A stretch of DNA of 59,216 nt from an uncultured Ignavibacteriaceae bacterium (GCA_964645575.1 CAZYAM010000003.1:9064-68279); one strand, 5' to 3'; positions 17,502 to 37,601 are shown, counted from the stretch's first letter. A program made the numbers and translations. The notes: a model not told the origin generated them from the sequence alone.

Positions 17502-17540
17502 ACCAAAGCTCCTTTTAGTAAGTGAATGATTTATACATAG

Positions 17541-17565
17541 GATGCAAAAAGACTGGGAAGGGTTC
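17541..17565 (-). promoter_or_regulatory. ECF-sigma-like promoter GAACC-N16-CATC (for DUF2892)
   Basis: Same motif and spacing recur before the thioredoxin and peroxiredoxin genes. Confidence 0.55.
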
Positions 17566-17597
17566 GATATCTTGTAAATATTCTATTAAAAAATGAT

Positions 17598-17622
17598 GAA
17601 CCGTTTTCTTTTCCTCGTCATC
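17598..17622 (+). promoter_or_regulatory. ECF-sigma-like promoter GAACC-N16-CATC (for thioredoxin)
   Basis: GAACC gttttcttttcctcgt CATC, 47 nt before the thioredoxin start. Confidence 0.55.
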
Positions 17623-17669
17623 TTATCTATATCAAAGATAATGTAACAAATTAACAAAGGAGAGCAACC

Positions 17670-18077
17670 ATAGCAGAATATCTCAACAAAGAATCCTTCC
17701 GTGATAAAATCTTTAATTTTGAAAAGAACAAAGAGGGGAAGTATGAGGGAGATTTTCCAGCACTAGTCGATTTTTGGGCTCCATGGTGCGGGCCATGCCA
17801 AATGGTCGAACCTGTGATCGATGAGCTTTCTCAGGAATACGAAAGAAAAATAGATTTTTATAAAGTGAATATAGAAAAAGAGCAAGAGCTTGCAGGTATG
17901 TTTGATATTCAAAGCATCCTCTCGCTGCTGTTTATTCCGGTTAATGGAGAACCAAAGACGGCATTAGGTGCCTTACCAAAAAAGGAACTGGAAAGAATTA
18001 TTGACACCGACTTGATGCCATCCATAAGTGCTGACAGCAAATTACTGCGGCAGCAGATGGAACTGTTGCAGCATTAA
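17670..18077 (+). pseudogene. trxA: Thioredoxin with ATA in place of the start codon (pseudogene or non-canonical start)
   Basis: AGGAG 7 nt before ATA at 17670; frame reads (I)AEYLNKESFRDKIFNFEKNKEGKYEGDFPALVDFWAPWCGPC and is continuous with ORF 17802-18077. Confidence 0.8.
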
Positions 18078-18106
18078 GCGCACTTGAGTATATCCGTACC
18101 ATATAA
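18035..18106 (+). pseudogene. trxB: C-terminal remnant of thioredoxin reductase
   Basis: Frame reads QQITAAADGTVAALSALEYIRTI*, resembling the TrxB C-terminal helix; the rest of the gene is absent. Confidence 0.6.
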
Positions 18107-18160
18107 ACAGTGCATTACGAATAAGCGGCGCTTCCATTTACCATTAAAGAGTTATATCTT

Positions 18161-18790
18161 ATGAATGTGAAAAATAAGAATCATTGGTACGATGGATATT
18201 TTTATGATCTGTTGATTGCCCCTAATCAGGACAGCGCATTTGCCCATGTAAGGAACTTGATTGCTCCCGGATCGACTCTCTTGGATGTCGGCTGCGGAAC
18301 CGGAAGGCTGGCCTTGCAGTTGATTGACAAATGTTCTAGAATCGAAGGTATCGATCCCAGTGTCAGAAATATCAATATCGCACAACGCAAGCTTGCGGAG
18401 AAACCGACCGATAAAATACGGTTCCATCATGTCGACGCACTTGAATTTCTGACGAAGAAGAATGTCTGTCTCGACTATGCAACAATTTCCTATGTGATTC
18501 ATGAAATCGAGGAGCAAGAAAGAAACCAACTGCTGCAGAAGCTTGCCTTGGTTGCCCGCACTATCATCATAGTGGACTACTTAGTACCTCAGCCAAGGAA
18601 TTACTGGAGAATACTCAACGAGGCAGTTGAATTCGCTGCGGGTTCAAGCCACTATAGGAATTTCAAATCCTTTGTCGCTGGGAACGGTCTGGCCGGATTG
18701 CTTGAGCGAACCGGACTTATGGTTTTGAGCGAATTGAAAAACGATCCTCCATCGAGTCACATCGTGCTGACAACTCGAAAAGCAGGATAA
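18161..18790 (+). CDS. Class I SAM-dependent methyltransferase
   Basis: LLDVGCGTG motif I, GIDPS, SYVIHE. Confidence 0.88.
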   Translation: MNVKNKNHWYDGYFYDLLIAPNQDSAFAHVRNLIAPGSTLLDVGCGTGRLALQLIDKCSRIEGIDPSVRNINIAQRKLAEKPTDKIRFHHVDALEFLTKKNVCLDYATISYVIHEIEEQERNQLLQKLALVARTIIIVDYLVPQPRNYWRILNEAVEFAAGSSHYRNFKSFVAGNGLAGLLERTGLMVLSELKNDPPSSHIVLTTRKAG

Positions 18791-18856
18791 ACGAAAAGTA
18801 CCATTAGAAGAATAGTCGTTTGCGCTGGGTTTAGTGATATATTTCCAAGAACAATC

Positions 18857-19699
18857 TTAGATACCAAAGGCATAAAGCAGCAGCCCGACTCCCAATCCGA
18901 AGACAAGATTAAACATTTTGATAAGGAATGAATCTTTCACCGAGTAAGACAGCATCGGCAGCATGCTATGCCCGTCCTGGACAAAGGAACTTGTGAAAAG
19001 GACGGAAAACGGGATCAATCCATTTGCGAACATACTGACAAAAAGAAGATGGGGACCGGACTCAGGGATTAAACCGATTACAGCTCCAAGCAGAAGAAGA
19101 ACAAAAGTGTACTGCGAACTAATCGTATCGAGATGCCAATAGTGCATTCCGAATTCTACAATGATCAAGGCACCGAACGTCCACAGAGCAGTTTTCCATA
19201 AATGCTGTCGAATTATATGTTTCCATATATGCTCTCGTATGTAATGCCGGAAGCTTCTTTCTTCATGGTGATATAGAGTCTCGGGGCAATCCTGACAGGT
19301 TTGTATATTCGCTTTCTTTACGAATTTGTCCACGAGCCATCCTGTTATTATCCCGCTGACAAACAGTAAAGCGAAAAGTATCAAAGCAGTTTGTGGAAAC
19401 ATCGCAAGCATAATGAATGCTTCATCACCTGACGTTGCCGCCATCGAACCGACGAGCGCGCCAAAGCTGATCATGCCATGAATGTACAATGAAACATTCG
19501 TAAAACCACCGATGCATCCCGGAACGGTTCCAATGGCAGAACTCACTATGTATTGCCGCCATTGATGTCCCTGCTTGAGAAGGAGAGCAATTTTGCCGCG
19601 TGTCCAAACGTTGAGTACATCTACTACAACCATCATCAGTAATACTAAAAGAGTTACCTGTAATGTCTCTCCCAGGACTTTCATCAGTAGTGGCTGCAT
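18857..19699 (-). CDS. Putative manganese/heavy-metal transporter (DUF2899/ArsP_2-like)
   Basis: GTVPGCIG, SGDEAFIML, LIPESGPH and VQDGHSMLP motifs; multi-TM. Confidence 0.8.
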   Translation of the reverse strand: MQPLLMKVLGETLQVTLLVLLMMVVVDVLNVWTRGKIALLLKQGHQWRQYIVSSAIGTVPGCIGGFTNVSLYIHGMISFGALVGSMAATSGDEAFIMLAMFPQTALILFALLFVSGIITGWLVDKFVKKANIQTCQDCPETLYHHEERSFRHYIREHIWKHIIRQHLWKTALWTFGALIIVEFGMHYWHLDTISSQYTFVLLLLGAVIGLIPESGPHLLFVSMFANGLIPFSVLFTSSFVQDGHSMLPMLSYSVKDSFLIKMFNLVFGLGVGLLLYAFGI

Positions 19700-19725
19700 A
19701 GTTTTTTACCTTTGCGTATATAATA

Positions 19726-19763
19726 GAACCATCCCCCTAATTTAAATTTTGAGAGGATGGTTC
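19726..19763 (-). terminator. Hairpin downstream of the peroxiredoxin gene (possible terminator)
   Basis: GAACCATCC / GGATGGTTC inverted repeat; weak U tract. Confidence 0.45.
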
Positions 19764-19776
19764 ATTTTTAGATAAC

Positions 19777-20490
19777 TTACTTTTTAAGTATTGTGTTTAA
19801 GACTTTTTCTTTGTCTATTTTCTTCGTACAGAAAAACCAGTCATAGCATTTTACATCGTCCTGTTTTTTCTCCATACGCTCTTTTGCAACACCGCAGGAT
19901 CCGGCAGTAGGTACGATGACCTCATCGCCTGGCCGCCAATCGGCCGGAGTAGCAACGGAAAATGCATCGGCTGTCTGCAATGCAATGAGAGCACGGTATA
20001 GTTCGTCAAAATTTCTGCCAAGACTGAGCGGATAGTAAATAATGGTGCGTACGATTCCCTTTGAATCTATGATAAACACTGCACGCACAGCTTTCGTGTT
20101 GCTTTCACCCGGCTGCATCATTCCGTATTTATTTGCGATTTCCATAGTGATGTCTTCGATCAAGGGAAATTTCACTTCCACGTTTTTCATTCCCTTATAT
20201 TCGATCTTCTCTTTGATAGTTCTCAGCCAAGCAATGTGGCTGTAGAGTCCATCAACAGAAAGCCCGACGAGTTTGCAATTTGCCTTTGCAAACTGATCTT
20301 CCATCGAAGCGAAAGTCATAAATTCCGATGTACAAACCGGTGTAAAATCCGCAGGGTGACTGAAAAGAATTACCCAGCTTCCTGAGTATTGAGCTGGGAA
20401 ATCGATTTCCCCTTGAGTTGTAACAGCTTTAAACGCAGGAGCTTTTTCTCCAATACGCGGCAAGGATAGAGACTGAACGGTTGTTTCCAT
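19777..20490 (-). CDS. Peroxiredoxin (Prx6/TDXH type)
   Basis: HPADFTPVCTSEF, GRNFDE, TPADW and C-terminal DWFFC. Confidence 0.95.
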   Translation of the reverse strand: METTVQSLSLPRIGEKAPAFKAVTTQGEIDFPAQYSGSWVILFSHPADFTPVCTSEFMTFASMEDQFAKANCKLVGLSVDGLYSHIAWLRTIKEKIEYKGMKNVEVKFPLIEDITMEIANKYGMMQPGESNTKAVRAVFIIDSKGIVRTIIYYPLSLGRNFDELYRALIALQTADAFSVATPADWRPGDEVIVPTAGSCGVAKERMEKKQDDVKCYDWFFCTKKIDKEKVLNTILKK

Positions 20491-20552
20491 TTTGAATCTC
20501 CTTAATATAATTGGTAAAATTCAGTTAATAAAATTGATTATTCTTCCCGTTT

Positions 20553-20577
20553 GATGCAGAAAATGGAAATAAGATTC
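20553..20577 (-). promoter_or_regulatory. ECF-sigma-like promoter GAATC-N16-CATC (for peroxiredoxin)
   Basis: Reverse complement GAATC ttatttccattttctg CATC; same spacing as the two copies at 17.5 kb. Confidence 0.5.
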
Positions 20578-20608: not shown

Positions 20609-21004
20609 TTATAAAAACGCTTTAATTCCTTTCCTTAGTGTATTCAGCGCCAGATGAATGCATTCATATTTTGAAGGAGGAATACCTTCAAGAAATGTCA
20701 GGACATCCTGAAAATCAATTTGTGATGCTTCCTGCATGGTTTTGCCTTTTATCATTTCTGTTGCTGCTGATGCCACAGCTTCCAATCCTCTGCATCCTAT
20801 GTATTCATATTTAGCATCGATGATTCTTAATTTATCGCATTTTATATACAAAATCAGCGTATCGCCGCAATCCGATTGATGTTGAACGGTGATGTCGGAT
20901 TGTTCTATGGTGCCGAAATTCAATTGCTGATCGAGAAGACGCACGGCTTTCTCCGAATAACCGGCATTATTAAGCAGGACAAGTGGATTGTTTTTTTCTA
21001 TCAT
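20609..21004 (-). CDS. NifU N-terminal / IscU-like Fe-S scaffold
   Basis: NFG, CGD, GC and C-terminal C (three Cys), EMIKGKT. Confidence 0.82.
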   Translation of the reverse strand: MIEKNNPLVLLNNAGYSEKAVRLLDQQLNFGTIEQSDITVQHQSDCGDTLILYIKCDKLRIIDAKYEYIGCRGLEAVASAATEMIKGKTMQEASQIDFQDVLTFLEGIPPSKYECIHLALNTLRKGIKAFL

Positions 21005-21162
21005 CGGTTTACAACTATTCAGTTCAATTTAAAATTACTTTAAATGTCAATTGCTTCGCTGGCTTTTATACTGTTTTTTGGATTCAGTAATTATTTTAAT
21101 TCCTTTTTTCATACCTTCTTCGCAACGCAGTTTTTTCTGCTTGTTGCAAATATGATCATTTT

Positions 21163-21774
21163 CTAAATAATTCCTCGTTGCGAAATAATGATTTCTTGAA
21201 TATCACTTTTTGCCTGTTTTATTGAAAATCCCTTTTGTGTCAGATAAGCTCCGATATCCGACAGATTAATTGTGCCTTTGTCGTGCCGATTACCATCAAG
21301 CGCATGAATTTTATCTATGATCTTGAATCCTGCTTCTGTAAAATCAGCCAATATAAGTTTCCCGTTTGAAGAAAGAATCCGCGATAACTCATCAACGACT
21401 TGATAGGGTTTATGTAAATGGTGAAAGACGTTGACAGAAAAAATTATATCAAAGTTTTTATCGTTAAAACCAGTATGCTCTGCATTCTCTATTCTGAAAT
21501 CTACTAAGTCAGTAAGGCCAAAATATGCTGCATTGAGCTTTGCAAAACGTTGTTCTTCAGCTGATATATCAATAGTGATAAAGGTACAGCCTTTTTTTGC
21601 CAACGCTAACGTAAAGTGCCCTTTACCTGTTCCAGCTTCAAGAATTCTGCCTTTAAGAGGTTTCGCCTGTTCAACGATAAAATTCCTCTCCTTTTCAACA
21701 TCATAACCATAACTTTTAAAAAGCGCTATCCGTTCAGAGTATCGCTTATGATTATCTACTATCTCTTTGTTCAT
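21163..21774 (-). CDS. Class I SAM-dependent methyltransferase
   Basis: ILEAGTGKG, IDIS, VNVFHH, LADF. Confidence 0.88.
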   Translation of the reverse strand: MNKEIVDNHKRYSERIALFKSYGYDVEKERNFIVEQAKPLKGRILEAGTGKGHFTLALAKKGCTFITIDISAEEQRFAKLNAAYFGLTDLVDFRIENAEHTGFNDKNFDIIFSVNVFHHLHKPYQVVDELSRILSSNGKLILADFTEAGFKIIDKIHALDGNRHDKGTINLSDIGAYLTQKGFSIKQAKSDIQEIIISQRGII

Positions 21775-21786
21775 ATCAGGTTACTT

Positions 21787-22266
21787 TTACGACAAATCCT
21801 CCAGCAATGATTCTAAGTCATCTTCATGTTCAATTTCTTCTTTCATTATTTCGAGTGCGAGTTGATAGGTAACGACATCTTTCTCTTTTGTTGCATCAGC
21901 AAGCTTTTTGTATACTTCAATGGCGCACTGCTCGCCTTTGATATTCTGTTTTAAAAGGCTCTTTACAGACGGGTCTTCTGGTGCATCATAACCGCAATTC
22001 GACATTTTATACCAATCCTCAGGCTTTATGATAATGTTGCCGCCTAATTGAAGGATCCTCTCGGTGAGCATTTCAGCATGTTTGAGTTCTTCCGCAGCAT
22101 GTTCAGCAAGTTCTCCTGCAACTGCGCCGCGCATTTGGCCGCGTACAATTTTTGCGCCTGTCCAGTATTGGTAATAAGCAAGCCACTCATCGGCAAATGC
22201 TTTGTTCAACAGCGTAATGATATTCTTTACGTCTGCTCCTGCTAATTCTCTTGCTTTCGTTCCCAT
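21787..22266 (-). CDS. Ferritin-like DpsL/bacterioferritin-related protein
   Basis: AFADEWLAYYQYW, EELKHA, EQCAI and EEIEHE di-iron motifs. Confidence 0.9.
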   Translation of the reverse strand: MGTKARELAGADVKNIITLLNKAFADEWLAYYQYWTGAKIVRGQMRGAVAGELAEHAAEELKHAEMLTERILQLGGNIIIKPEDWYKMSNCGYDAPEDPSVKSLLKQNIKGEQCAIEVYKKLADATKEKDVVTYQLALEIMKEEIEHEDDLESLLEDLS

Positions 22267-22298
22267 GATATGCTCCTTTAATAAATTATGGTTTTGTT

Positions 22299-22677
22299 TT
22301 AAAAATTGCGGTTATGTTCATTTGCACATGCTTTGTAGCCGCTTGACTTTCCTTGAATAAAAAGATTCAACGCTTCCTCATAAAGAAGCCCGGGGGCAGT
22401 AATAACAGTAATGCCGTATTCAGCGAACTTAGCGATTGCCTTTTGTCCCATTCCTCCGGCGATGATTGTGTTGATATTAAATTTCTGCACATAACCGGGT
22501 ATCTCGCATGCACCGCTATGCTGGCCTGCTAATGGATTATCATGACTTTCTTTCTTCACCCACTTTATTTTGTTCATCTAGCTCACATACGTTAAATTTG
22601 GAACACCTGCCGAAGTGCTCGGCCACTTTTTCATGGGCTCCGTGTACTTCAATTGCTACTGCTAATCTGTGGTTCAT
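22299..22677 (-). pseudogene. NifB/NifX-like (COG1433) protein split by a +1 frameshift
   Basis: ATG 22677 reads MNHRLAVAIE..VAEHFGRCSKF; one extra G in the run at 22559-22561; the second half has IIAGGMGQKA. Span is 379 nt (3n+1). Confidence 0.85.
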
Positions 22678-22746
22678 GGTTATTTATTCCTTATTCCAAC
22701 TTACTAAAAAAAGCAAAAAGAATCATTATAAAACCTCAAATATGAT

Positions 22747-23121
22747 CTATAATTTCTTTGAACCGGAATAAACTGCTTCGACTCTAAGTGCAGCAACGGC
22801 ATGACCGGGGAATTTAGCCGGGTTCCATTTTTTCATATCATTAAAAATATTGCCGGTTTTGTGATACTCGATGCTTCCTTTTATCTGAAAAGATTTGTTG
22901 TCTTCGGTGAGAAAGAGGACCGATCCTTTGCTTCCGTTTAAAATATTATTGCGTGTTTTCCCAAAATGATTATCGGCAATAACGATTGTCTCCGAATCGT
23001 ATATGGAAACACATGTGGCATAAATAGAATTTGGAATGCTGTCGGAATCTACGGTGGAAAACACAATTGGACCTACGCGTTTATCCCATGATGTTATTAC
23101 TAACTCGGGTAGGACTGCCAT
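22747..23121 (-). CDS. Pyridoxamine 5'-phosphate oxidase-like FMN-binding protein
   Basis: IVIADNHFGKTRNNI, SFQIKGS, VEAVYSG. Confidence 0.85.
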   Translation of the reverse strand: MAVLPELVITSWDKRVGPIVFSTVDSDSIPNSIYATCVSIYDSETIVIADNHFGKTRNNILNGSKGSVLFLTEDNKSFQIKGSIEYHKTGNIFNDMKKWNPAKFPGHAVAALRVEAVYSGSKKL

Positions 23122-23206
23122 TTTACTTTTTCCTTTTTAATGCTTATTCAATTATAAAGGAGCGGATTGAATTATCGCACTAACCGATATATTTAGATCA
23201 CGAAAA

Positions 23207-23401
23207 TTAATTTCCCGATCTTCTTCCTTGTCCTTTGCGGAGGCCGCCGCCGCGAGGTTTCCCGCCGCGTCCGACTCCCTGGATTTCCTTTTGCTCGCCG
23301 GTCTGTTTTGTTGTTTGCGATTGAGAATTTCGGCACCGGCCTCTCCTCCCACCTGTCATCGGCCCTTGTCCCTTCGGACCGGTTCTATCTAAATTAGGCA
23401 T
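23207..23401 (-). CDS. DUF5320-like Gly/Arg-rich small protein
   Basis: AGGAGG RBS; MPNLDRTGPKGQGPMTGGRRGRC. Confidence 0.85.
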   Translation of the reverse strand: MPNLDRTGPKGQGPMTGGRRGRCRNSQSQTTKQTGEQKEIQGVGRGGKPRGGGLRKGQGRRSGN

Positions 23402-23410
23402 AACGACCTC

Positions 23411-24232
23411 CTATGATTGTTTGTTGAGTTGTGTTGTGATAAAATCGACAATAACCTTACATGCTTTAGATGCTTCAGAATCCGGTTTCTCTAAAATAAA
23501 TGGAGTACCATTATCACTGAGAGGACAGATATCTGTGTCTATGGGAATTGAGCCGAGAAATTGAATATTCATATCTTTTGCTAATTTCTTGCCCCCGTCT
23601 TTTCCAAAAAGGCTGATCTCTTTTCTGCAATGAGGACAAAGCAGCGTGGACATGTTTTCAACAACACCGATAGATGGAATATTTAGTTGTTTTGCCATGT
23701 TAACGGCACGTTCTGCATCGATGACAGAAACTTGCTGCGGAGTTGTAACAATGACAGCATAGTCGGGTTTCATTTGCTGGGCTATCGAGAGTATTTCATC
23801 TCCCGTGCCGGGAGGAAGATCTGCAATCAGATAGTCAAGCTCTTCCCATACAACATCGGCTAAGAATTGATTGATGACTTTTGAACGCATAGGCCCTCGC
23901 CAGATAAGCGGCTGTCCTTTCTTAAGAAGACCTGCCATCGAAATCATCTTTACGCCACCTTTTTCAAAGGGAATCATTTGATCGTTCAACATGATCGGAT
24001 CATCGTTCACACCAAGCATCTTAGGCACATTAGGACCTGTTACATCTGCATCGAGAATTCCTGTCGAGAATCCTTTCAATTTAAATCCGTAAGCAAGATT
24101 GACGGCTACGGTCGTTTTCCCGACACCGCCTTTACCGCTGAAAACAGCAACTCGATGTTTTATCTTTGAGATAGTCTCTGAAATTCGTTTCTTTTCTTCT
24201 TCGAATGCTTTTTGTTTTTCTTGTTCGTTCAT
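23411..24232 (-). CDS. mrp: Mrp/NBP35 (ApbC) Fe-S carrier ATPase
   Basis: SGKGGVGKTT, LDADVTGP, WRGP, DLPPGTGD, VTTPQ, ENMS and CPHC motifs. Confidence 0.95.
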   Translation of the reverse strand: MNEQEKQKAFEEEKKRISETISKIKHRVAVFSGKGGVGKTTVAVNLAYGFKLKGFSTGILDADVTGPNVPKMLGVNDDPIMLNDQMIPFEKGGVKMISMAGLLKKGQPLIWRGPMRSKVINQFLADVVWEELDYLIADLPPGTGDEILSIAQQMKPDYAVIVTTPQQVSVIDAERAVNMAKQLNIPSIGVVENMSTLLCPHCRKEISLFGKDGGKKLAKDMNIQFLGSIPIDTDICPLSDNGTPFILEKPDSEASKACKVIVDFITTQLNKQS

Positions 24233-24234
24233 TA

Positions 24235-25578
24235 TTATACCGTTTTAAACCATTTAACAATTGCGTTGATTGTTGCGTTGATTACCGGATAGGCAATTGG
24301 AGACGGTGTAAGCAAGGGATGCGTTCCTATCTGTAGTGTATTAATATCGGTGTCCGTCATTCTGTTCAAGATCATTACTGAAATCATGTTAATCAGTTCT
24401 CCCACCGAATCCCCGCCGTATATTTGTGCTCCCAGCAGTGTATGCGAGTACGTGGAAAAAATTAATTTAACATAAACTTCAGAAACCCCCTGAAGTTTGC
24501 CAGGGTGCCTGTCAACTGCCTTGGATATTCCGACAGTATATTCCAATCCTTTTTCTTTAGCACGTTTTTCCGTCATGCCGCTGACAGCAAAAGCGGTCTT
24601 CCCGATTTTTGTTGAAAATGTTCCCAGCACACCTTGATATTGTCTGATGACTCTGATAGAATAGAGATTTGAACCGACAAGTCTTCCTTCAGCCATAGCT
24701 GTTGAGGCGAGCATTATGTTTGAGAGATCGCCTGTGAAGAAATCGTATTTTATAGCACAATCGCCGATGGCAAAAACATCTTTTTCTGATGTTCGCAAAT
24801 AGTCGTCAACAGGCACCCCTTTTCCTTCTTGATATGGAATACCTATTTTCTTTACAAGTTCAAGATTCGGCTTATATCCTACAGAAATGACAACGAGATC
24901 GCACTCTATTCTTGAACCGTCGTCAAGTTCCACACCGCCGACAGAAGTCTCGCCTAATATTCTTTTAATCTTTTTTCCCGTTACGACAGTTCCACCTTGT
25001 CCGATGAGTATTTCTTTAACTTTTTCTCCGAATTCTTGATCCATGGTCGGTAACAGTTGAGGCATCATTTCAACGAGAGTGGTGTTCTTTTTCGCTTTTA
25101 CTAATTCGTCTGCGACTTCAACGCCAATGTAACCGCCGCCGACAATAACGATTTTTTGGGCTTTATGAACTGCTGTACGAAAACGTTCCAGATATTCTCT
25201 TTCTTTATGTACAAGATAGACCCCGTCTTTATTGTTTCCTTCAATATTGGGAAGCATGGCGACAGAACCGGTGGCTAATACAAGCTTTTCATAGTGGATT
25301 TCTTCACCGTTGGAAAGAACTATGGTATGATCTTTTCTATCAACAGCCTCGCCATTGATGATATCGATTTTATTTGTTGTCAATGGCACATCCGGTAAAA
25401 TATTTTCATCGACACCGTTTAAGGAGAACAAAACATAAGGTATTCCGCATGGAATCATCGGTTTCATGTCTTTGCGAATTAACGCGACATTTTTACTTGG
25501 ATAAGAATTTTTGGCAGATAACGCCGCAGATACTCCGGCAGGACCTCCGCCAATAATTACGACATCATATTGTTTCAT
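24235..25578 (-). CDS. FAD-dependent pyridine nucleotide-disulfide oxidoreductase (NADH oxidase / CoA-disulfide reductase family)
   Basis: GGGPAG, redox Cys in IPCGIPY, GGGYIGVE, AIGDC. Confidence 0.9.
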   Translation of the reverse strand: MKQYDVVIIGGGPAGVSAALSAKNSYPSKNVALIRKDMKPMIPCGIPYVLFSLNGVDENILPDVPLTTNKIDIINGEAVDRKDHTIVLSNGEEIHYEKLVLATGSVAMLPNIEGNNKDGVYLVHKEREYLERFRTAVHKAQKIVIVGGGYIGVEVADELVKAKKNTTLVEMMPQLLPTMDQEFGEKVKEILIGQGGTVVTGKKIKRILGETSVGGVELDDGSRIECDLVVISVGYKPNLELVKKIGIPYQEGKGVPVDDYLRTSEKDVFAIGDCAIKYDFFTGDLSNIMLASTAMAEGRLVGSNLYSIRVIRQYQGVLGTFSTKIGKTAFAVSGMTEKRAKEKGLEYTVGISKAVDRHPGKLQGVSEVYVKLIFSTYSHTLLGAQIYGGDSVGELINMISVMILNRMTDTDINTLQIGTHPLLTPSPIAYPVINATINAIVKWFKTV

Positions 25579-26450
25579 TATGGCACCTTTATTATTTGGT
25601 TAGACAATAGAACTCCGTATCCCAACGGATAACCGGAGCGCTCAGCGATAACTTCGCATTTAACTTTAAAAAGAAAATAGATCAGCCTCGTTTCATTCAT
25701 TAATGTTTCGAGATTTCCCTGGCCTTTTGCAATGACAATGTCGGCCTTCTTGTAAAGTTCAAGAAATTCCGGAGTACATTGCCGTAGATCGGTTCCGGCA
25801 ATCATACTTCCGCTTTCTACAACATTGCATATTTTATCTATACCGATCCGCTTTGCATCTTCAAGTGTTATGTCATTGAGAATCGGTTTCGACCGTACCG
25901 CGAAAATAACTTTTTTTTGCATAAGTTCAGATAGAAGAAATTTATCGAATAGTGCTTCCTCGTAGTTGTCGCCGATGTAGAGTATGATATCGGCTTTTTT
26001 TAAATCGTCTTTAAAATGGGGAAGCGAAGAGAGGTCAATAGTATTTGAAGCTATTCGATTGACTTCATATTCGATATCAAAACGATGGTTAGCGCCAAGG
26101 TCGATGATATTGCCGATGATGGCAATTCTTAGAGCAGTATCGAGCTTGTCTTTCGAGCCTTCCATCATTGTCCTAAAAAACGGGATATATTTCTCCGCTG
26201 TTTTTCTATTCTCTTCTTTTATTCTTTCGTAAGGGTTGACCACTCCCAGGTGTTTTTCAACGATGGACTGTATTGTCAAAGAGAACATCGGCGCGTTAAA
26301 ATTTCCATCAACAGCATCGACAGATTTGCAGACTTCTTTGACTATCTTAAGTTGAAGTTCCTTGTCTTCCTTATTGAAGAGCCGGGCTGCATTGTATGCT
26401 TGATTTATAATACAGGGAATACATCGTGGATCAAAAAACATGGTCTTCAC
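25578..26450 (-). CDS. DUF89/ARMT1-like metal-dependent damage-control phosphatase
   Basis: CIPC, NPYERIK, GNIIDLG, DN, NDIT and AKGQGNLE motifs. Confidence 0.88.
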   Translation of the reverse strand: MKTMFFDPRCIPCIINQAYNAARLFNKEDKELQLKIVKEVCKSVDAVDGNFNAPMFSLTIQSIVEKHLGVVNPYERIKEENRKTAEKYIPFFRTMMEGSKDKLDTALRIAIIGNIIDLGANHRFDIEYEVNRIASNTIDLSSLPHFKDDLKKADIILYIGDNYEEALFDKFLLSELMQKKVIFAVRSKPILNDITLEDAKRIGIDKICNVVESGSMIAGTDLRQCTPEFLELYKKADIVIAKGQGNLETLMNETRLIYFLFKVKCEVIAERSGYPLGYGVLLSNQIIKVP

Positions 26451-26482
26451 TTTTATTTAATTATTTACTAAAAATTGTCAGC

Positions 26483-26962
26483 CTATAATATACGTTTTCT
26501 TTTGCGCTTGCCTTTTTTAAAATGCATATCAAGCCAGCCGTTTCTTATATGATCTCTTGAATCAAAATGAGCTACATAGGGTTTGATATCTAATAACGGA
26601 GTGCCGTCAAGTATATCGACTTCTGAAAATACGATAATATTATCCTTCACCTTTTCCAATTTCACAATGGAAAATCCGATATGATTGGGCCTGTGAGGGC
26701 TTCTTATTGCAAATATCCCGTGTTCCTTATCCTCAAGGAACGGTTTCCCAACAAGTATCTCTTCTTTAGAGCGGTTAAAATGGTAAATTAAAATGAGGTG
26801 CGAAAATCCCTCAATGTCTTTAAGTCCCTCTTGATACCGTTTAAATAATTCTATCCGGCCCTTCACATGCTTTTTGAAAGTACCCTGAATAGGCATACCC
26901 TTTGGTTTTTTATAAGGCGTGTAAATTATTCCGATGGGTTTAAGATTGATTTCTTTTTTCAT
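26483..26962 (-). CDS. tsaA: TsaA/TrmO-family SAM-binding protein (tRNA m6t6A methyltransferase-like)
   Basis: LKPIGII, GIFAIRSPHRPNHIG, DILDGTPLLDIKPY. Confidence 0.9.
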   Translation of the reverse strand: MKKEINLKPIGIIYTPYKKPKGMPIQGTFKKHVKGRIELFKRYQEGLKDIEGFSHLILIYHFNRSKEEILVGKPFLEDKEHGIFAIRSPHRPNHIGFSIVKLEKVKDNIIVFSEVDILDGTPLLDIKPYVAHFDSRDHIRNGWLDMHFKKGKRKRKRIL

Positions 26963-26963
26963 A

Positions 26964-27097
26964 TCAGAAAGTAATCACTCTCTCGCTTTCTCCAATAATT
27001 TTATAAATATCTTTCATGGTCGAAATCGGGCACATCTCTAAGTTTCCTGCTCTCGTAACTTAATACAGCTTCCGCAAGCATAAATTTTGCTTTCCGC
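26964..27097 (-). pseudogene. C-terminal remnant of a DsrE/DsrF-like sulfur-relay protein
   Basis: Reads KIYACGSCIKLREQET, then a frameshift near 27040, then EMCPISTMKDIYKIIGESERVITF*; the N-terminal half is missing. Confidence 0.7.
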
Positions 27098-27129
27098 CTA
27101 AAAATCATACGGGGCGAGGCTTCCATTAA

Positions 27130-29445
27130 TCAAAATGCTGTTTCGATACCAAAAAAAAGCGTCCCGGGCCTGGCAGGACCATAGACATACGCCGGATCTC
27201 GATCGGGCCCAGTATCCAGATCGTCTTGATAAGCATTTAATATATTTTTTGCTCCAATGTTTAATTTCATATTTAATCCGTTATTCAACGGAAGTTTGTA
27301 AGTAAGACCCACATCTATTTCAAAAAATTGATCGCTCTTTTCAAGGATAAGTATGGGATTTTCCTGTCCTTCCACAACGACTTCATGGGGTAAATCAGCT
27401 TCCCCGATATAAGTGCCATTCAGATAAAGGTCGATATTGCTGCTTGCAGTCAGGGATAAAATGATATTTCCTGTCAAGTCTGGTGTTCTAAAAAAATTAT
27501 AGGTCCCGAAATCCTTATGAGGACTATCATAGCGACTTTTTTGATATGTTAAACCGCCACGAATTTCAAAACCGCTCAATGGACGAATTCCCATATCCAT
27601 TTCGATACCTGTTACCTTAGCGCCGTCACTGTTTACACGTTCCCAGCGTTCGATACTGCCTTGTTTGGAAACAAACTGCTCGGTGAAGGAATCGGTTAAT
27701 TTTGTATAAAAAGCGGTCAATGAAAACATGGTCGGAATATCATTTATATAACCCAAATATTCCAATCCACCGCTGAGTGAATGGCTGCGCTCTTCTTTTA
27801 GTTCCGCTGAATTTCGAATGACTCGTTGATCACCTTCAATGCCGCACAGATGCAAATCTTCGTCGTACGTTTGTGGTGGTTTGAATCCCGTGGTATACGC
27901 GGCTCGAAGCGTAATACCTTTGCCAATATTAAATTTCCCATTGAGACGGGGACTCACAATCCAATCTTTCAGTTCAGAGTGCTTATCGAAACGAATACCT
28001 GCCACAAATTCCAATTGCTTATCATCACCAAAATGGAAATTATCTTGAACAAAGATTCCCGTATTTTTATAGATCTCATTTATATAGTAGGCTGTTTCAG
28101 CAGCAGTTTCATCCTGCAATTTATCTTGGGAATATTGTACTCCAGATGTCAGGAGATGGTTCTGCGCTTGGTAATTAAATTGAAATCCTGCAATTTGCAT
28201 CGGATTATCTGTTTTTCCATAAAAAGCCAGCGCATCCAATGTATCCTTCGGCGTGTCGCCGCCTAAACCACCGAAATAGGATTTTCGATTTTCGAATGAA
28301 AAAGAATAAAAAAATCGATAGTCGAAAAGCGCTCCAGGTCGATGAGACCAGCGAATAGTTCCCCCCGATCGCCAGTGTTCTATCCATTCGGCGATGTCAG
28401 CTTCATGGACAGGCAGATCGAACTTGTTGCCTCCACGCCGTTCTTCATGGATTTGATGAAACGATGCTAATAATTCACTATTGATAAATGGTTGGTAATA
28501 CCATTTGAATCCGAATGTTTCATTACGCAGCTCGCCTAATTCACTAAATCCATCTTTGTTGTAGTCATAAGGATTACGCTTTCGGAACGAGCCAAATATG
28601 TAGGTGCCCGACGTCCCTTTATTATAAACATTCTCTGCAACGGCGCCAAGATGCTGATCTATTTTACCATCGGTGGAGTTGCTCTGGTATTTGATCCTTA
28701 CCTGGTTTATCATGGGCGTTCGTGTAATCATATTAATGACTCCAGCCACCGCGCCGCCGCCATAAAGCGATGATCCGCCGCCTTTTACGATTTCAATCTG
28801 ATCGACCATTTCTTCGGGAAAATGCTCGAGCCCGTACACACCGGCCAAACTACTGACGACGGGATCGCCATCAATCAAAATCTGTGAATATTTGCCATCC
28901 ATGCCCAAAATACGCACCTGTGAAAAATTACAATTTGTGCAATTATTTTCAACCCTGATTCCGGTATGAAAAGAAAGGGCTTCCGCCAAATTGCAAGCAT
29001 GTTTTTGTTCAATCAACTGCCGTGGAATGACCTCGGTTCGTACAGGCATATCTTCCATCAGATGTGGAGTTAATGTTCCCGTTACCACCATGGCTCCCAT
29101 TTCAAACATAGTCGATTCAAGTTCAAAATTAACCATCGTGTGTTCATCAGATTGAATGTCTATAATTTTTTGTTCCTGTTTGTATCCCATCACCGACGCA
29201 ACGAGATGCAATTGCCCGGGTGAGACATTGCTAATAATATACTCGCCATTTTTGTCGGTTGCGGCTCCGACGGTTGTATGTTCAACGATTACATTGACTC
29301 CTGGCAGGGGCTCTTTTGTTTTTTTATCGATCACTTTACCTTTTATCGAACCGTTACCAGGCATTGCAAATGTAACTGTAGAAGAAAATAACAAACCGAA
29401 TATTAAATATGTTTTCATAGCTTGGATTACGATTTTTATGTTCAT
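27130..29445 (-). CDS. TonB-dependent receptor with N-terminal carboxypeptidase-like domain and CxxC plug
   Basis: KEPLPGVNV, VVTGT, ENNCTNCNFSQVRILG, IEIVKGGGSSLYG, C-terminal Phe. Confidence 0.93.
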   Translation of the reverse strand: MNIKIVIQAMKTYLIFGLLFSSTVTFAMPGNGSIKGKVIDKKTKEPLPGVNVIVEHTTVGAATDKNGEYIISNVSPGQLHLVASVMGYKQEQKIIDIQSDEHTMVNFELESTMFEMGAMVVTGTLTPHLMEDMPVRTEVIPRQLIEQKHACNLAEALSFHTGIRVENNCTNCNFSQVRILGMDGKYSQILIDGDPVVSSLAGVYGLEHFPEEMVDQIEIVKGGGSSLYGGGAVAGVINMITRTPMINQVRIKYQSNSTDGKIDQHLGAVAENVYNKGTSGTYIFGSFRKRNPYDYNKDGFSELGELRNETFGFKWYYQPFINSELLASFHQIHEERRGGNKFDLPVHEADIAEWIEHWRSGGTIRWSHRPGALFDYRFFYSFSFENRKSYFGGLGGDTPKDTLDALAFYGKTDNPMQIAGFQFNYQAQNHLLTSGVQYSQDKLQDETAAETAYYINEIYKNTGIFVQDNFHFGDDKQLEFVAGIRFDKHSELKDWIVSPRLNGKFNIGKGITLRAAYTTGFKPPQTYDEDLHLCGIEGDQRVIRNSAELKEERSHSLSGGLEYLGYINDIPTMFSLTAFYTKLTDSFTEQFVSKQGSIERWERVNSDGAKVTGIEMDMGIRPLSGFEIRGGLTYQKSRYDSPHKDFGTYNFFRTPDLTGNIILSLTASSNIDLYLNGTYIGEADLPHEVVVEGQENPILILEKSDQFFEIDVGLTYKLPLNNGLNMKLNIGAKNILNAYQDDLDTGPDRDPAYVYGPARPGTLFFGIETAF

Positions 29446-29496
29446 TTATTCTGTGATATGATATGAGTATTTCTTTTTTTAGTTATCGTTTTTATC

Positions 29497-30312
29497 TTAC
29501 TTTTTTAATGATGATTTATATATTATGAACCAGCCGGCAGATCCTATAGCTATCAGCCCAAGAGATATCAACTGCGCTTCACTTAATCCAAAAGCAATCC
29601 GCGGATTGATGCGGATGAACTCTATTGTAAACCTTTCAATTCCGGCCAATATCAAATAGAACATGAATAACATTCCTGTCGGCAAAGGCTTTTTTCGGAT
29701 GGACCAAAGGAATAAAAACATTACTCCGCAAATCAGAAATTCGTACACAGGAGTCGGATGGCATGGAGTGTTATCCGGAACAATACCTCCTGGAAATTGA
29801 CTGCAGATTTCCGGAAAACCTCTGAAGGCTGCCGAAGGCGGGTATGTGCCGTTCGAATAATCAGTTCCCCAGGGAAGTGTCGTCGGGAAACCATAATCGC
29901 CGTCACCTGAAAGATGACATCCGATACGTGCAATGCCATATGCAAGAATCAAAGCAGGCGAAATTGCATCGGCCACAGTAAAGAAAGTGATTTCCTTTTT
30001 CTTTGAATAAAGATATATTGAGAACGTTGCGAGAATGAAACCGCCGTAAAATGTTAATCCGCCTGGATTAAATATCATGCCTATTGGATCCGCCGTGAAT
30101 TCGCGCCAGTATTCTAACAAGTAAAGAATTTTTGATCCTGCAATACCCGAAACCAGTGCTATTAATGTGATATTATTCGCTATATTCGGATCCAGTTTCC
30201 GGCGTTTGAATTCGCTGACGAAAAGATAACTTCCGACAATGAAACCGGTTGCAAGCATTAAACCGTAGCTATAAACTGTAAAGGGGCCGATTTGAAAGAG
30301 TCTGGGACACAT
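29497..30312 (-). CDS. lgt: Prolipoprotein diacylglyceryl transferase
   Basis: YSYGLM, GGLTFYGG, ARIGCHLSGD, HPTPVYE, RFTIEFIR. Confidence 0.92.
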   Translation of the reverse strand: MCPRLFQIGPFTVYSYGLMLATGFIVGSYLFVSEFKRRKLDPNIANNITLIALVSGIAGSKILYLLEYWREFTADPIGMIFNPGGLTFYGGFILATFSIYLYSKKKEITFFTVADAISPALILAYGIARIGCHLSGDGDYGFPTTLPWGTDYSNGTYPPSAAFRGFPEICSQFPGGIVPDNTPCHPTPVYEFLICGVMFLFLWSIRKKPLPTGMLFMFYLILAGIERFTIEFIRINPRIAFGLSEAQLISLGLIAIGSAGWFIIYKSSLKK

Positions 30313-30478
30313 AAATAATATTCCTGTTAATAAGGGGTTTTAGGTATCGACTCGAAATTGCATAAATATTTTTTGGCTTATTTGAAATTTACGAAAATAT
30401 TTAGCCGGATACAGCATGATCATTCTTATTATTTACAAAGACATTATTTGAATGAAATATCCCTATATCCATTTTTTT

Positions 30479-31580
30479 CTATGGAAGAAGGCGGTTATTT
30501 CTAAAAAATATTTTTTCTTCGGAATCGATTCTTGCGGCTAATTTTTCATCGATCATATATTTCAGCATGTCCGGATCGCCGCCTTTATTTTCAATAAATT
30601 TATTTGCCGCTTCTTCAGTCACAGGATGCACGGACATAATTCCCAAAAGTTCTTCTTCAAGTCCGCCGGCACCTTCAAAATCATTTTCTTCAGAAAAGAA
30701 TAACGTTTCTGAATCCGTGATTTTATTTTTTGTGAACTTCGAAATTTCAGAGAGTGTTGAAATACGGGGCGCCGCGACATAAGCTTCAGTGGGCGGGCGG
30801 ATTGGAATCGTGAAGTATGATTTGTTTCTCTTCAGTTTTTTAAAGTATTCGCTTAGCACTTCTAACTCACCAAGATTGTCATTTATATTCTCTACCAGCA
30901 TTGTCTCCGTGGTAAGAAAGCCACGGTAAGATTTTGAGAAGTCGATTATTCCATCGAGAATTGCATTGAATTTTAATTTTCCATGCGGCCTGTCCAGTTT
31001 TGTCCACGTTGTTTCATTTACCGTATCAACTTTTACTGATACATGATCTGCAAGTGAAAGACTTTCTTTTACATCATCGTTCCACAAAAGAGAGGAGTTT
31101 GTGAAAACTGCAATTTTGCGGCCAAATTCTCGAAGAAGTAAAATCTCTTTCGAAAGGTTAACATCAAGAGTCGGTTCGCCATTTGGAAGAATGCTGATAT
31201 AATCTATTTGAGTACGTTGTTCAGTCAATAGTTTAATCTTGTCATTAACGAGATTGAACGCTTCTTGTAGATCCAAAAACCCATCCCGTTTTATTGAACA
31301 GCGTTTAGTACGGCCGACCTGGCAGTATACGCAGTTATAAGTACATACTTTTTGATACATAGTCATTGATACCGAGGCTGTATCCCAATCTTCGTGACGG
31401 CACAGGCCCGAAAACAATGTTCCCGCGGGAAGAAGGATTTACAGGAACGCTATTCTCCGGATTAACACACATTGTATCTATAAAAGAAGGATTTGAAACA
31501 ATAGTCTTCTCAAAATTACCACGAATATTCTCTATTTTCCTTTTGAATGCAGATTTTATTCTATCGAATTGAAGAGTCAT
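30479..31580 (-). pseudogene. Radical SAM protein (COG0731/TYW1-like) split by a +1 frameshift
   Basis: FGPVPSRRLGYSLGIN in ORF 31335-31580 and KVCTYNCVYCQ in ORF 30479-31417; removing one A from the A5 run (31349-31353) restores NDYVSKVCTYNC. True start uncertain (31580 or 31472). Confidence 0.85.
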
Positions 31581-31598
31581 ATGAATATATGGGTTTTT

Positions 31599-33314
31599 TT
31601 AGAGAATAAGATTAAGTAATGTACCCATTAATAGTGCGACCATAATCATAATGGATGTAATTTTAAGAGTATCTTTTATTCCCAATTCTTTTATTAAAAC
31701 CATATAAGTGGCAATACAAGGGAAATAAATCGCTAATATTGTAGAGCCAATTACTAATTGTTTAGTAGACAAGTTAAGAGGGCCAAGCATACCCACGGCG
31801 ACATCTTTCCTTAAAAATCCGACAAGTAAAGCAGAAGCAGCTTCTTTCGGCAGTCCCCATAGGTCGTTTAAGACGGGAGACATAATTTCGGTAAAGAAAT
31901 CAATAATTCTTAAAGAATAAAGTATATTCACAAAAAGCACTCCTACAAGCACTAAAGGCAATGCTTCCTTTAAAAATCCGTATAAACGCATCCAAAGTTT
32001 TTTTATCACGGCTTGAAATTGAGGTATCCTATATGGAGGTATTTCAACTAATATTTCCGGACTCGCGCCCTTTATAACCTTATTGAGTATTAGACCTTTG
32101 ATAATAAAAAGCATCAAAAGAGCGAAGAATATAATTGCTACGTATTCGCCTCCCCGCTGTCCAACCAATCCTACAATCATGGCAGTTTGTGCCATACAAG
32201 GAATGGCAATTGTCATTAAAGTAGCGGCAATAAATTTCTCACGCCTTTCTTCAAGTATTCGGGTCGCCAGTGCCCCGGGGACATTACATCCTAAGCCTAA
32301 AATAAAAGGAATGATTGCATATCCATGCAATCCTAAATGGTGCATGAAATTATCAACTAAAACTGCCAAACGGGGAAGATATCCGAAATCCTCTAATATT
32401 CCCAAGACTAAATAGAAGCTCACTATGTATGGTAATACAACACCGATAGGCACAAAAAGTCCGGTTGTTAGCATACCAAAAGATAAGCCAAAATCTATTT
32501 TGCCTTCGATGAGGTTGCCGATAAGAATCTGATGCAGGAAAGTTTGTTCTCCCAGATATGTGCTTAAACTCATCATAAACGGAAGCCAAAGATTTCTAAA
32601 CAAGGGTTCAAAGACGCATCCAATAAGACTTTCTCCGATGAATCGAATTATCCAAAAAAAGCCAAATACTATACATAAAGCTAACGGCAGACCGCTGATA
32701 GGTTTAATGCTTAGATCTTCTAATCTTTCTAATATTGTATGGTGACGGTGAGTTAGTTTCTGAGCTGCTTCCACAATTTTTCCAATTTTTTCCCATCTGT
32801 CACCGTCGGAAGAGACAGGCATCTTTCCCATCTTTGCCTCTGGTATGCGATCAATCAATTCCTTTATACCTTCACCGGACAAACCACAGGTATGAACTAC
32901 CGGTACGCCCAATTGCTCCTCTAATTTTTTTATATCAATTTGGATACCGCGATGCTTAGTGTCATCCCATAAATTTAAAGCGACGATTACAGGAATATTT
33001 CTTTCTAGCAATTCGAGAGTCAAATAAAGATTTCTTTCTAAATTTGTAGCATCCATAACATTGACAACTACATCACCTTCCTGTAACATCCGGACGGCTA
33101 CTTCTTCGGCTTCGCAGGTCGGCTTTAAAGTATATGTTCCGGGAATATCTATGATCATTGCCTTTTTATCACCCAGTTTCATTTGCCCCTGGCTGAATTC
33201 TACCGTTGTGCCCGGATAGTTGGAGATTATTACCTTTACCCCGGTAAGTCTGGAAAAAACCGTGCTTTTGCCGACGTTAGGATTACCTACAAGTAAAATT
33301 TTTTCTATTTGCAT
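31599..33314 (-). CDS. feoB: Ferrous iron transporter FeoB (short type)
   Basis: GNPNVGKS, NYPGTTV, DIPG, LGLGCNVP, PCMAQ, YFPCIAT. Confidence 0.95.
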   Translation of the reverse strand: MQIEKILLVGNPNVGKSTVFSRLTGVKVIISNYPGTTVEFSQGQMKLGDKKAMIIDIPGTYTLKPTCEAEEVAVRMLQEGDVVVNVMDATNLERNLYLTLELLERNIPVIVALNLWDDTKHRGIQIDIKKLEEQLGVPVVHTCGLSGEGIKELIDRIPEAKMGKMPVSSDGDRWEKIGKIVEAAQKLTHRHHTILERLEDLSIKPISGLPLALCIVFGFFWIIRFIGESLIGCVFEPLFRNLWLPFMMSLSTYLGEQTFLHQILIGNLIEGKIDFGLSFGMLTTGLFVPIGVVLPYIVSFYLVLGILEDFGYLPRLAVLVDNFMHHLGLHGYAIIPFILGLGCNVPGALATRILEERREKFIAATLMTIAIPCMAQTAMIVGLVGQRGGEYVAIIFFALLMLFIIKGLILNKVIKGASPEILVEIPPYRIPQFQAVIKKLWMRLYGFLKEALPLVLVGVLFVNILYSLRIIDFFTEIMSPVLNDLWGLPKEAASALLVGFLRKDVAVGMLGPLNLSTKQLVIGSTILAIYFPCIATYMVLIKELGIKDTLKITSIMIMVALLMGTLLNLIL

Positions 33315-33544
33315 CTGTCTATCTCAACAAAAATTTTTTTTGCCATTCCGAATCCGACAGCAACTTGCATATTGTCTATTTCTATCGTCTGTGGACCGCG
33401 CCAGAAATGAGAACTTACCTTGGTTATTCTCTTCCCGGGCCTTATTCCTATGCTTTGCAGTTTTCTTATGAAGCCGCGACCGCCCAGAATCTCTTTTACC
33501 GTGCCGGTTTCTCCCGGCTGCATTTGTGTTAAATCTGTCTTCAT
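33305..33544 (-). CDS. feoA: FeoA family protein
   Basis: RKLQSIGIRPG, GP, VAVGFGMAKKI; overlaps the feoB start. Confidence 0.92.
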   Translation of the reverse strand: MKTDLTQMQPGETGTVKEILGGRGFIRKLQSIGIRPGKRITKVSSHFWRGPQTIEIDNMQVAVGFGMAKKIFVEIDRCK

Positions 33545-33546
33545 TT

Positions 33547-33756
33547 TCAAAAACAGGTAGGACATGTTCCTGTAGAGCAGCTTGGTCCAGAAGAAGAACT
33601 GTCTCCAGAACCTCCAACGCTAAATGTTGAAAATATTCTTTCGATATTTTCACTGTTGCATTTTTCGCATTTAAGCTCTTGTTTTTCTGAAGTTACCCCT
33701 ATCAACAAATCGAATTTCTCACCACAATCTTTACAAATATATGTATACATAGGCAT
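33547..33756 (-). CDS. FmdB-family zinc ribbon protein
   Basis: MPMYTYICKDCG...CEKCNS...RIFS plus a Cys-rich tail CSTGTCPTC. Confidence 0.9.
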   Translation of the reverse strand: MPMYTYICKDCGEKFDLLIGVTSEKQELKCEKCNSENIERIFSTFSVGGSGDSSSSGPSCSTGTCPTCF

Positions 33757-33795
33757 GATTATCATCTCCTGTTTATGTTCTAAAAATTAACTTAA

Positions 33796-34110
33796 CTAAA
33801 CATGTTGCTTGATCGTAGTTTCCAGTTCGGATTTAGGAAGCGCACCTACAACCTTGTCCACGACTTTATCATCTTTAAAAATTGCTAAAGTTGGAATACC
33901 CATTATTCCATAACGAGATGCGGTATTAGGAGCTTCATCTACATTTAACTTATATACTTTCAATTTACCTTTATATTCCTCGGCGATTTGCTTGATTATC
34001 GGCGCCACCATAAGGCAAGGGGCGCACCACTCTGCCCAAAAGTCTACCAAAACAGGTAAATCCGATTCTAAAACCTCTTGTTTAAAATTATTATCATTTA
34101 CATTAATCAT
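33796..34110 (-). CDS. trxA: Thioredoxin
   Basis: [18 protein letters not shown]. Confidence 0.93.
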
Positions 34111-34120
34111 ATCTTTGTTT

Positions 34121-34765: not shown

Positions 34766-34843
34766 AATTGTTAAAGAAAAATATTCACTAAACGATGATT
34801 CAATTCAATCTTAAATATATACATGAACCTTTATAAGCAACTT

Positions 34844-36394: not shown

Positions 36395-36433
36395 GTTTTT
36401 CTATTGTTTAATTCTTTGCGCTTATAATTCTTT

Positions 36434-37563: not shown

Positions 37564-37601
37564 AGTTCAGCATGATAAAAATCCTATTTTTGAGATAGGT
37601 C

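Follow-up and report, generated by a model that had tools for sequence, protein, structure and literature searches.

Predicted ECF-type promoters of a putative thiol- and sulfur-stress regulon in Ignavibacteria-like bacteria

Which protein reads a short bipartite element that stands, each time pointing at the gene, before three redox-related genes of an uncultured Ignavibacteriaceae bacterium? The DNA analysed here (59,216 nucleotides, GCA_964645575.1 CAZYAM010000003.1:9064-68279; hereafter the window) carries the pattern GAAYC-N16-CATC upstream of genes for a DUF2892 protein, a thioredoxin-like open reading frame (ORF; trx) and a peroxiredoxin (prx). A preliminary description of this DNA had proposed that the three copies belong to an oxidative- or sulfur-stress regulon that includes DUF2892 and is controlled by an extracytoplasmic function (ECF) sigma factor. 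The reading that we favour, and hold with moderate confidence, is that the sites are ECF-type promoters, here called P(DUF2892), P(trx) and P(prx), and that they are read by a sigma factor encoded in the same gene cluster of related genomes. This reader would be a group IV sigma factor resembling RpoE and SigW, recognising a −35 element GAAY with a T-tract and a −10 element TCnnA(T) at a spacing of 17–18 nt.

The element in the window and in related genomes

The three copies lie where the preliminary description had placed them, in intergenic DNA and each on the strand that points at the named gene (Table 1), and their spacers are indeed exactly 16 nt long, with pyrimidines at 12–13 of the 16 positions. 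The motif ends 39 nt before the ATG of DUF2892, approximately 47 nt before the ATA codon at 17670 of the trx-like ORF and 62 nt before the start codon of prx. P(DUF2892) and P(trx) stand back to back, with 33 nt between their −35 elements. Transcription would be predicted to start near 17529–17533 for P(DUF2892), 17630–17634 for P(trx) and 20541–20545 for P(prx). A position weight matrix (PWM) run over the 59 kb scored the three sites at 23.5–24.9 and the runner-up, an intragenic match, at 14.5. The fourth exact match to the pattern, within lgt, was rejected as a chance occurrence: it lacks the extra conserved positions described below and is absent among PWM scores of at least 9. An Rfam search of the window returned tRNA only.

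Table 1. Predicted promoter sites and associated genes in the window, with positions counted from its first nucleotide.
Feature	Position	Strand	Form or supporting match
P(DUF2892), predicted ECF-type promoter	17541..17565	-	GAACC-N16-CATC then CTAT; = GAACCC-N17-TCCTA; PWM 23.9
P(trx), predicted ECF-type promoter	17598..17622	+	GAACC-N16-CATC then TTAT; = GAACCG-N17-TCTTA; PWM 24.9, top score of the window
P(prx), predicted ECF-type promoter	20553..20577	-	GAATC-N16-CATC then AAAC; = GAATCT-N17-TCAAA; PWM 23.5
Fourth exact GAAYC-N16-CATC match	29946..29970	+	Antisense, within lgt; outside the system
DUF2892 / YgaP-like transmembrane protein, 69 aa	17292..17501	-	Pfam PF11127, E=1.1e-20
Thioredoxin-like ORF, WCGPC	17670..18077	+	Pfam PF00085, NCBIfam TIGR01068
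SAM-dependent methyltransferase, 84 nt past trx	18161..18790	+	Pfam
1-Cys peroxiredoxin (prx), 237 aa	19777..20490	-	Pfam AhpC-TSA + 1-cysPrx_C
ArsP_2 permease, directly downstream of prx	18857..19699	-	Pfam PF11449

The pattern was defined after the sites had been seen, and over the whole window its four matches exceed the 1.14 found in shuffled sequence only marginally, as would suit a chance likeness or a functionless conservation by descent. Against this, three sites were observed in correctly oriented upstream intergenic DNA (4.1% of the window's strand-bases), where 2000 local shuffles averaged 0.0135 and in no case yielded as many as two. The comparison is post hoc, the pattern having been derived from the three sites themselves; it is a necessary rather than a sufficient test, and the independent test is conservation elsewhere.

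The genomes nearest to the window are Ignavibacteria-like metagenome-assembled genomes (MAGs), with prx identities of 93% (L011; related loci are numbered with the prefix L) and 91% (L012). Synteny with these two covers the genes for TrmO, ARMT1, Mrp, DUF5320, PNPOx, NifX-like, ferritin, methyltransferase, NifU, prx and ArsP_2, and the window's genes have AAGGAG ribosome-binding sites, unlike those of Bacteroidia. Among 80 prx loci from many phyla, the motif was confined to five, in which both blocks were kept and spacer and flanks had diverged: the gap was 16 nt in L013, L021 (Melioribacter sp.) and L064 and 17 nt in L012, and L011 had the variant GAATC-N16-TATC. For trx, which belongs to a 126-aa subfamily, orthologous upstream sites were found in eight loci (L097, L102, L176, L178, L180, L183, L186 and L188), with a variant GAATC-N16-CATT in L096; the motif was absent before the trx orthologs of Bacteroidia-type loci without Shine-Dalgarno sites (L098, L099, L103, L105 and L106). 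Nine loci had the orthologous site upstream of DUF2892 (L013, L176, L178, L180, L183, L184, L186, L187 and L188). A divergent DUF2892/trx pair with both promoters back to back, their −35 elements 30–35 nt apart, recurs in L176, L178, L180, L183, L186 and L188, and in L013, L184 and L187 one site heads a DUF2892-trx operon.

The motif also stands before genes that are not homologous to the window's three, so that descent alone is an insufficient explanation. It precedes a small 4Fe-4S ferredoxin gene in L178 and L183, a Pyr_redox_2-rhodanese gene and, divergently, a methyltransferase gene in L184, and a pntA-like gene in L064. In L180 it heads a MamS/X-like – ArsP_2 – sigma – anti-sigma string, and in L014 it lies before a DUF6132-like gene that heads a Fur-NifX-CoADR/rhodanese-ZIP-MBL-prx cluster. 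Of the 47 strict matches at 16 loci, 16 fell in correctly oriented upstream intergenic DNA, which makes up 3.9% of the strand-bases, and all 16 precede a prx, trx, DUF2892, ArsP_2, ferredoxin or MamS/X-like gene. The motif is therefore strongly enriched upstream of redox genes at related loci, as the preliminary description had anticipated for a real regulon, rather than no commoner there than by chance; the enrichment that it had likewise anticipated directly upstream of ECF sigma genes was not seen (six loci, listed below). These contexts came mainly from exact-protein look-ups; a metagenome scan with the trx alignment returned mostly generic thioredoxins and only about 10 close loci.

Variation within the population was seen on other contigs of the same salt-marsh metagenome population (L001–L003, L005, L006 and L010). 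All of them carry GAATC where the window has GAACC at P(DUF2892) (17561–17565), a polymorphism that agrees with the degeneracy of the Y position. In L010, the otherwise invariant A after the CATC of the trx site is replaced by G. The three sites are almost certainly a real conserved cis-element. Chance or functionless descent has a negligible probability beside the motif's occurrence before non-homologous genes, its diverged spacers and flanks, and an A outside the original pattern at all 27 sites of the consensus described next.

Promoter class and candidate sigma factor

The consensus was tabulated from 27 sites in 14 genomes, some of the later sites having been found by a PWM that included the flanks. 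In the −35 block, G (27/27) is followed by A (26/27), A (27/27), C or T (9 and 18 sites), C (27/27), any base, and three positions with T at 24, 23 and 24 sites. On the −10 side, G precedes CATC at 17/27 sites, and three bases past CATC stands an A at 27/27, followed by T at 22/27. This invariant A is not a circular result, because 25 of the 27 sites also fit the bare GAAYC-N16-CATC pattern. Given this A, the downstream block, CATCnTAT, contains TCnnA, and "CATC" can be read as this known −10 type taken two bases out of register. The preliminary description, which had not recognised CATC as a described −10 consensus, needs correcting on this point, since CATC corresponds to the upstream part of the TCnnA element of sigmaE/AlgU type (PMC10651043).

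GAAYC and CATC are separated by 16 nt at 19 sites and by 17 nt at 8, with free spacer sequence, and the motif ends 37–74 nt before nearly all of the tabulated start codons. The element is asymmetric, always points at its gene and works as a single copy (prx). On sequence criteria, this combination of asymmetry, orientation, single copies and a fixed gap with a free spacer is the behaviour of a sigma-factor promoter. An operator of a classical factor, either the MerR-family protein of the cluster or a Fur/PerR-family protein, would instead leave transcription to a housekeeping promoter. MerR genes do recur in related clusters, Fur/PerR-family genes often adjoin prx in other phyla and one is present in the window (39777–40247), and P(trx) is overlapped by TCGTCA-16-GATAAT, which weakly resembles a sigma70 promoter. 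We nevertheless consider an operator quite improbable. Single oriented copies of an asymmetric element, with its fixed 16–17 nt gap and 37–74 nt distance to the start, fit sigma recognition and not a dimeric repressor or activator; no inverted or direct repeat lies inside any site, as a dyad-symmetric Fur/PerR, OxyR or MerR operator would have; and for DUF2892 and prx the sigma70-like scan gave no upstream candidate on the coding strand.

As sigma-factor promoters, the sites were compared with the group IV type. The −35 element of this group has three regions, with a G before the AAC core and a T-tract behind it (PMC1540707). For AlgU the consensus reads GAACTT-N16/17-TCtgA, and GAACCT...TCctA and GAACTA...TCttA are among the AlgU promoters predicted in Azotobacter (PMC10651043). 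A three-part −35 of this kind, a spacing of 16–18 nt and a short −10 were all found, and the match of both the G/AAC-like/T-tract anatomy and the form GAAYnn-N17/18-TCnnA bears out the earlier view that a GAAC-type −35 with a 16-nt spacer is ECF architecture. The sites are probably ECF-type promoters. Three other classes were tried and rejected: the GG/GC spacing is unsuited to a sigma54 promoter, the TTGAA or CCCCAT context of a proteobacterial sigma32 promoter is missing, and just three strong sites for approximately 63 genes do not make a housekeeping promoter of the lineage.

A candidate for the reader was found in the gene neighbourhood. Seven loci (L178, L180, L183, L184, L186, L187 and L188) encode a 206-aa ECF sigma factor within 1–8 kb of motif-bearing trx/DUF2892 genes, in several gene orders, and further linkage between trx and sigma beyond these seven is suggested. 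The sigma factor is 69–96% identical among Ignavibacteriales/Bacteroidota MAGs. Among solved structures it comes closest to SigW, sigmaE and an AlgU-type sigma (E 1e-23 to 1e-25), and its best family matches are PRK11922, SigW, SigM and RpoE; it aligns with RpoE and SigW at 33–34% identity. In L178, L180, L184, L186 and L187 an anti-sigma gene adjoins the sigma gene, identified by sequence or by a zf-HC2 Pfam assignment (the latter in L180, L184, L186 and L187). The anti-sigma is 81–86 aa long (81 in L180, 85 in L178), has no transmembrane segment and contains C11 and H37-x3-C41-x2-C44. Its best NCBIfam match was antisig_RsrA (TIGR03988; E=9.5e-9, with 35.2 bits against a cut-off of 62.5), and its best PDB match was the zinc-finger domain of RsiW. 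With a fitting promoter anatomy and an ECF sigma in the same cluster of seven related loci, the proposal of a regulon under an ECF sigma holds up.

From gene neighbourhood and promoter type, we infer a link between this sigma factor and the motif. The most likely reader would be an ortholog of the 206-aa protein, held by the zinc-finger anti-sigma and set free when thiol-reactive stress (oxidants, reactive sulfur species or arsenite-like agents) triggers release. The pair is assumed to be encoded elsewhere in this organism's genome. P(DUF2892) would drive DUF2892, P(trx) the trx-like ORF and probably the methyltransferase gene, and P(prx) would drive prx and probably ArsP_2. The three promoters would belong to a small thiol/sulfur-stress regulon, conserved in Ignavibacteria-like bacteria, of which the window contains one part.

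Several observations weigh against this assignment. The strict AAC core of group IV is departed from, with AAT at 18/27 sites. The window, as had been noted before, contains no sigma gene: neither the four ECF sigma probes nor the two anti-sigma probes matched it by tblastn. In L180, NifU, the motif, MamS/X-like, ArsP_2, sigma and anti-sigma follow one another, whereas the window's series of NifU, motif, prx and ArsP_2 stops there. The DNA before the sigma gene was searched in seven loci; L178, L183, L184, L185, L186 and L188 have no motif directly upstream of it, so that the usual signature of ECF autoregulation is missing, and read-through to sigma is possible only in L180, from a motif 1.7 kb upstream. 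L014 carries the motif, yet the ECF sigma encoded close to it shares only 26% identity with that of L180. The anti-sigma also differs from RsrA around its zinc ligands. Acidic residues before C41, and L with a charged residue after C44, are reported to make actinobacterial zinc-finger anti-sigmas redox-sensitive (PMC3177212), and these flanks, HH-FEE-C-SP-C-LE in RsrA, are replaced here by KKH-LLT-C-PK-C-SK.

A different ECF sigma, for example an RpoE-like one encoded elsewhere, might read the sites, with the cluster pair controlling something else. This would suit the six loci without a motif directly before the cluster sigma, and also L014, where the motif heads a string that ends in the divergent sigma just mentioned and a membrane anti-sigma. 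RpoE-like sigmas often share GAAC...TC specificities, and the L014 and L180 sigmas both have NF008888/PRK11922 as their top NCBIfam match. We consider such a reader possible but unlikely: the sigma/anti-sigma pair lies amid motif-bearing genes in seven loci with varied gene orders, an arrangement that would be difficult to account for if the two were functionally unconnected, and the cluster sigma is the reader that we prefer.

Two further observations concern the sigma genes of these loci. Another conserved stretch, GTTCAyrTTCAyTCTTTTTCTTT...ATCTTAGTATCTTA, is located just upstream of the cluster sigma gene at L184 9940–10000, L186 5550–5607 and L188 9940–10000, and also in L178 and L180. In L014, the motif is adjoined by a CorE-like (ECF238) sigma of the metal-sensing ECF44/ECF238 kind, which has a CxC linker and a Cys-rich C-terminal tail and shares 56% identity with a Myxococcus protein; it was rejected as the reader, the Cu-ATPase gene beside it having another promoter, TGTAATG-N15/16-GCGTCA. 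The sequence TGTAATG-N15/16-GCGTCAGCAT was observed upstream of Cu-ATPase genes adjoining CorE-like sigmas in L014 (4824–4922) and, twice, in L092 (10546–11018), and may represent the promoter consensus of the CorE family in genomes outside the myxobacteria.

Target genes and their surroundings

The genes behind the motif are those expected of the redox or sulfur regulon that had been proposed to include DUF2892: the element occurs almost only before genes for prx, trx, DUF2892, DUF6132, ferredoxin, Pyr_redox_2-rhodanese and ArsP_2. In L013, L176–L184 and L186–L188, the DUF2892 gene either adjoins a member of this trx subfamily or diverges from it. The widespread DUF2892/YgaP-like transmembrane proteins and DUF6132 thereby come into the company of thioredoxin, peroxiredoxin and persulfide-reductase-like enzymes, a lead to their function.

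Thioredoxin as a target needs correcting in one respect: the gene may no longer be intact. In the stretch 17655–18077 (+), the trx-like ORF contains no ATG, GTG or TTG codon ahead of residue 45, and gene callers give it only 90–91 aa. The codon aligned with Met1 of its homologs is the ATA at 17670, 7 nt past AAGGAG; most population variants have GTA at this codon and the others ATA. At residues invariant or near-invariant in 25 homologs, the ORF carries the changes W23G, R44Q, G47E and P84L, the last at what we take to be the cis-proline opposite the active site, and its C-terminus is extended. It may be a decaying gene or one with non-canonical initiation. P(trx) is intact, and may perhaps have been kept for serving the downstream methyltransferase gene as well, which may be co-transcribed from it. 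Methyltransferases of this type recur in related clusters.

The prx protein is 81–93% identical across MAGs labelled as many phyla (L011–L090), and in many of them a Fur/PerR-family gene stands immediately before it. The pattern suggests that the protein is extremely conserved or its gene frequently transferred, and that control outside the Ignavibacteria-like group is of a different, PerR type. ArsP_2 may be co-transcribed with prx. Between the two genes, at 19726–19763, lies a perfect 9-bp inverted repeat (GAACCATCC / GGATGGTTC) that holds GAACC and CATC words out of promoter register, and may be a terminator or attenuator.

Beyond the three sites, many genes for iron, Fe-S and redox proteins follow one another on one strand over 20609–40247, none of them with the motif. 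The first part of this run encodes NifU, a ferritin-like protein, several NifX/Nitro_FeMo-Co-like proteins, a PNPOx-like protein, DUF5320, Mrp/NBP35, Pyr_redox_2, ARMT1 and TrmO. The rest encodes a TonB receptor, FeoB, a second thioredoxin (33796–34110), 4Fe-4S MinD-type ATPases and the Fur-family regulator at 39777–40247. In the relatives (L176, L178, L180, L183, L184 and L186–L188), the cluster is flanked by a conserved MerR – octahaem cytochrome c – cytochrome b – YeeE/YedE (Sulf_transp) – rhodanese operon, and TauE, ArsP permeases and ars genes (ArsR, ArsD, ArsA, ArsC and ACR3 in L183) are also nearby. These flanks point to sulfur-compound or arsenic chemistry.

Comparison with known systems

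No alternative-sigma regulon for the Ignavibacteria-like group, and no description of the present system, was found in the literature searched. The analysis supplies this mostly uncultured group with a predicted promoter code and a candidate sigma/anti-sigma pair, which can be set beside three kinds of characterised ECF systems.

The sigmaE factor of E. coli and AlgU of Pseudomonas and Azotobacter (ECF02) share the GAACnn...TCnnA form and the G/AAC/T-tract −35 (PMC10651043, PMC1540707). Their spacer is 16/17 nt, so that the 17–18 nt found here is at the upper limit or one base over it. They differ in having membrane anti-sigmas (RseA/MucA) and in responding to envelope stress, whereas a soluble zinc-finger anti-sigma and cytoplasmic thiol/sulfur redox are proposed here. 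The oxidative-stress ECF sigmas of Bacteroidota (P. gingivalis SigH, B. thetaiotaomicron SigR-1/SigH-1 of ECF114 and B. fragilis EcfO) belong to the same superphylum as the cluster sigma and have been linked to aerotolerance and thioredoxins (PMC12596196, PMC7366714). By description, their promoters are a −30/−10 near-palindrome (PM2) or, for EcfO, a distinct motif, and the Bacteroidia-type trx loci are without the present one.

The switches for thiol-oxidative stress formed by SigR–RsrA of Streptomyces coelicolor and SigH–RshA of Mycobacterium and Corynebacterium (ECF12) likewise pair an ECF sigma with a small soluble zinc-finger anti-sigma. The zinc ligands of RsrA are C11, H37, C41 and C44, and a C11–C44 disulfide releases SigR (PMC3177212); the relatives' anti-sigma has these four residues at the same numbers. 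The thiol-redox content of the SigR/SigH regulons is also found here, with motif-preceded trx, prx, redoxin operons, Pyr_redox_2-rhodanese, DUF2892 and DUF6132. The sigma factor itself falls outside the SigR/SigH clade, being nearer to SigW, sigmaE and AlgU (E approximately 1e-25, against 3.7e-6 for the SigR sigma-2 domain). The SigR consensus, which we take to be GGAAT-N18-GTT, is unlike the GAAY-T-tract...TCnnA of the present sites. No autoregulatory site was seen before the cluster sigma, and the phylum differs, the present loci being Ignavibacteria-like.

A more far-reaching idea, which we put forward only tentatively, is that the Ignavibacteria lineage evolved a thiol switch like SigR/RsrA on its own, starting from an RpoE/SigW-type sigma. 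Such a switch would use a separate promoter code and respond to reactive sulfur species or arsenite instead of oxidants derived from oxygen, and its core targets DUF2892 and DUF6132 would act in membrane persulfide/thiol handling. The position of the sigma gene in relatives, where its neighbours include ars genes, ArsP permeases, YeeE/YedE-rhodanese, an octahaem cytochrome and persulfide-reductase-like genes, is consistent with this. Were the anti-sigma a true thiol sensor, an RsrA-type mechanism would operate outside Actinobacteria and on a different sigma scaffold. Control of thioredoxin genes by an ECF sigma and a zinc-finger anti-sigma is already known from SigR–RsrA and SigH–RshA; the present case departs from these two, as judged from the sequences compared, in sigma scaffold, promoter code, phylum and core targets (DUF2892 and DUF6132).

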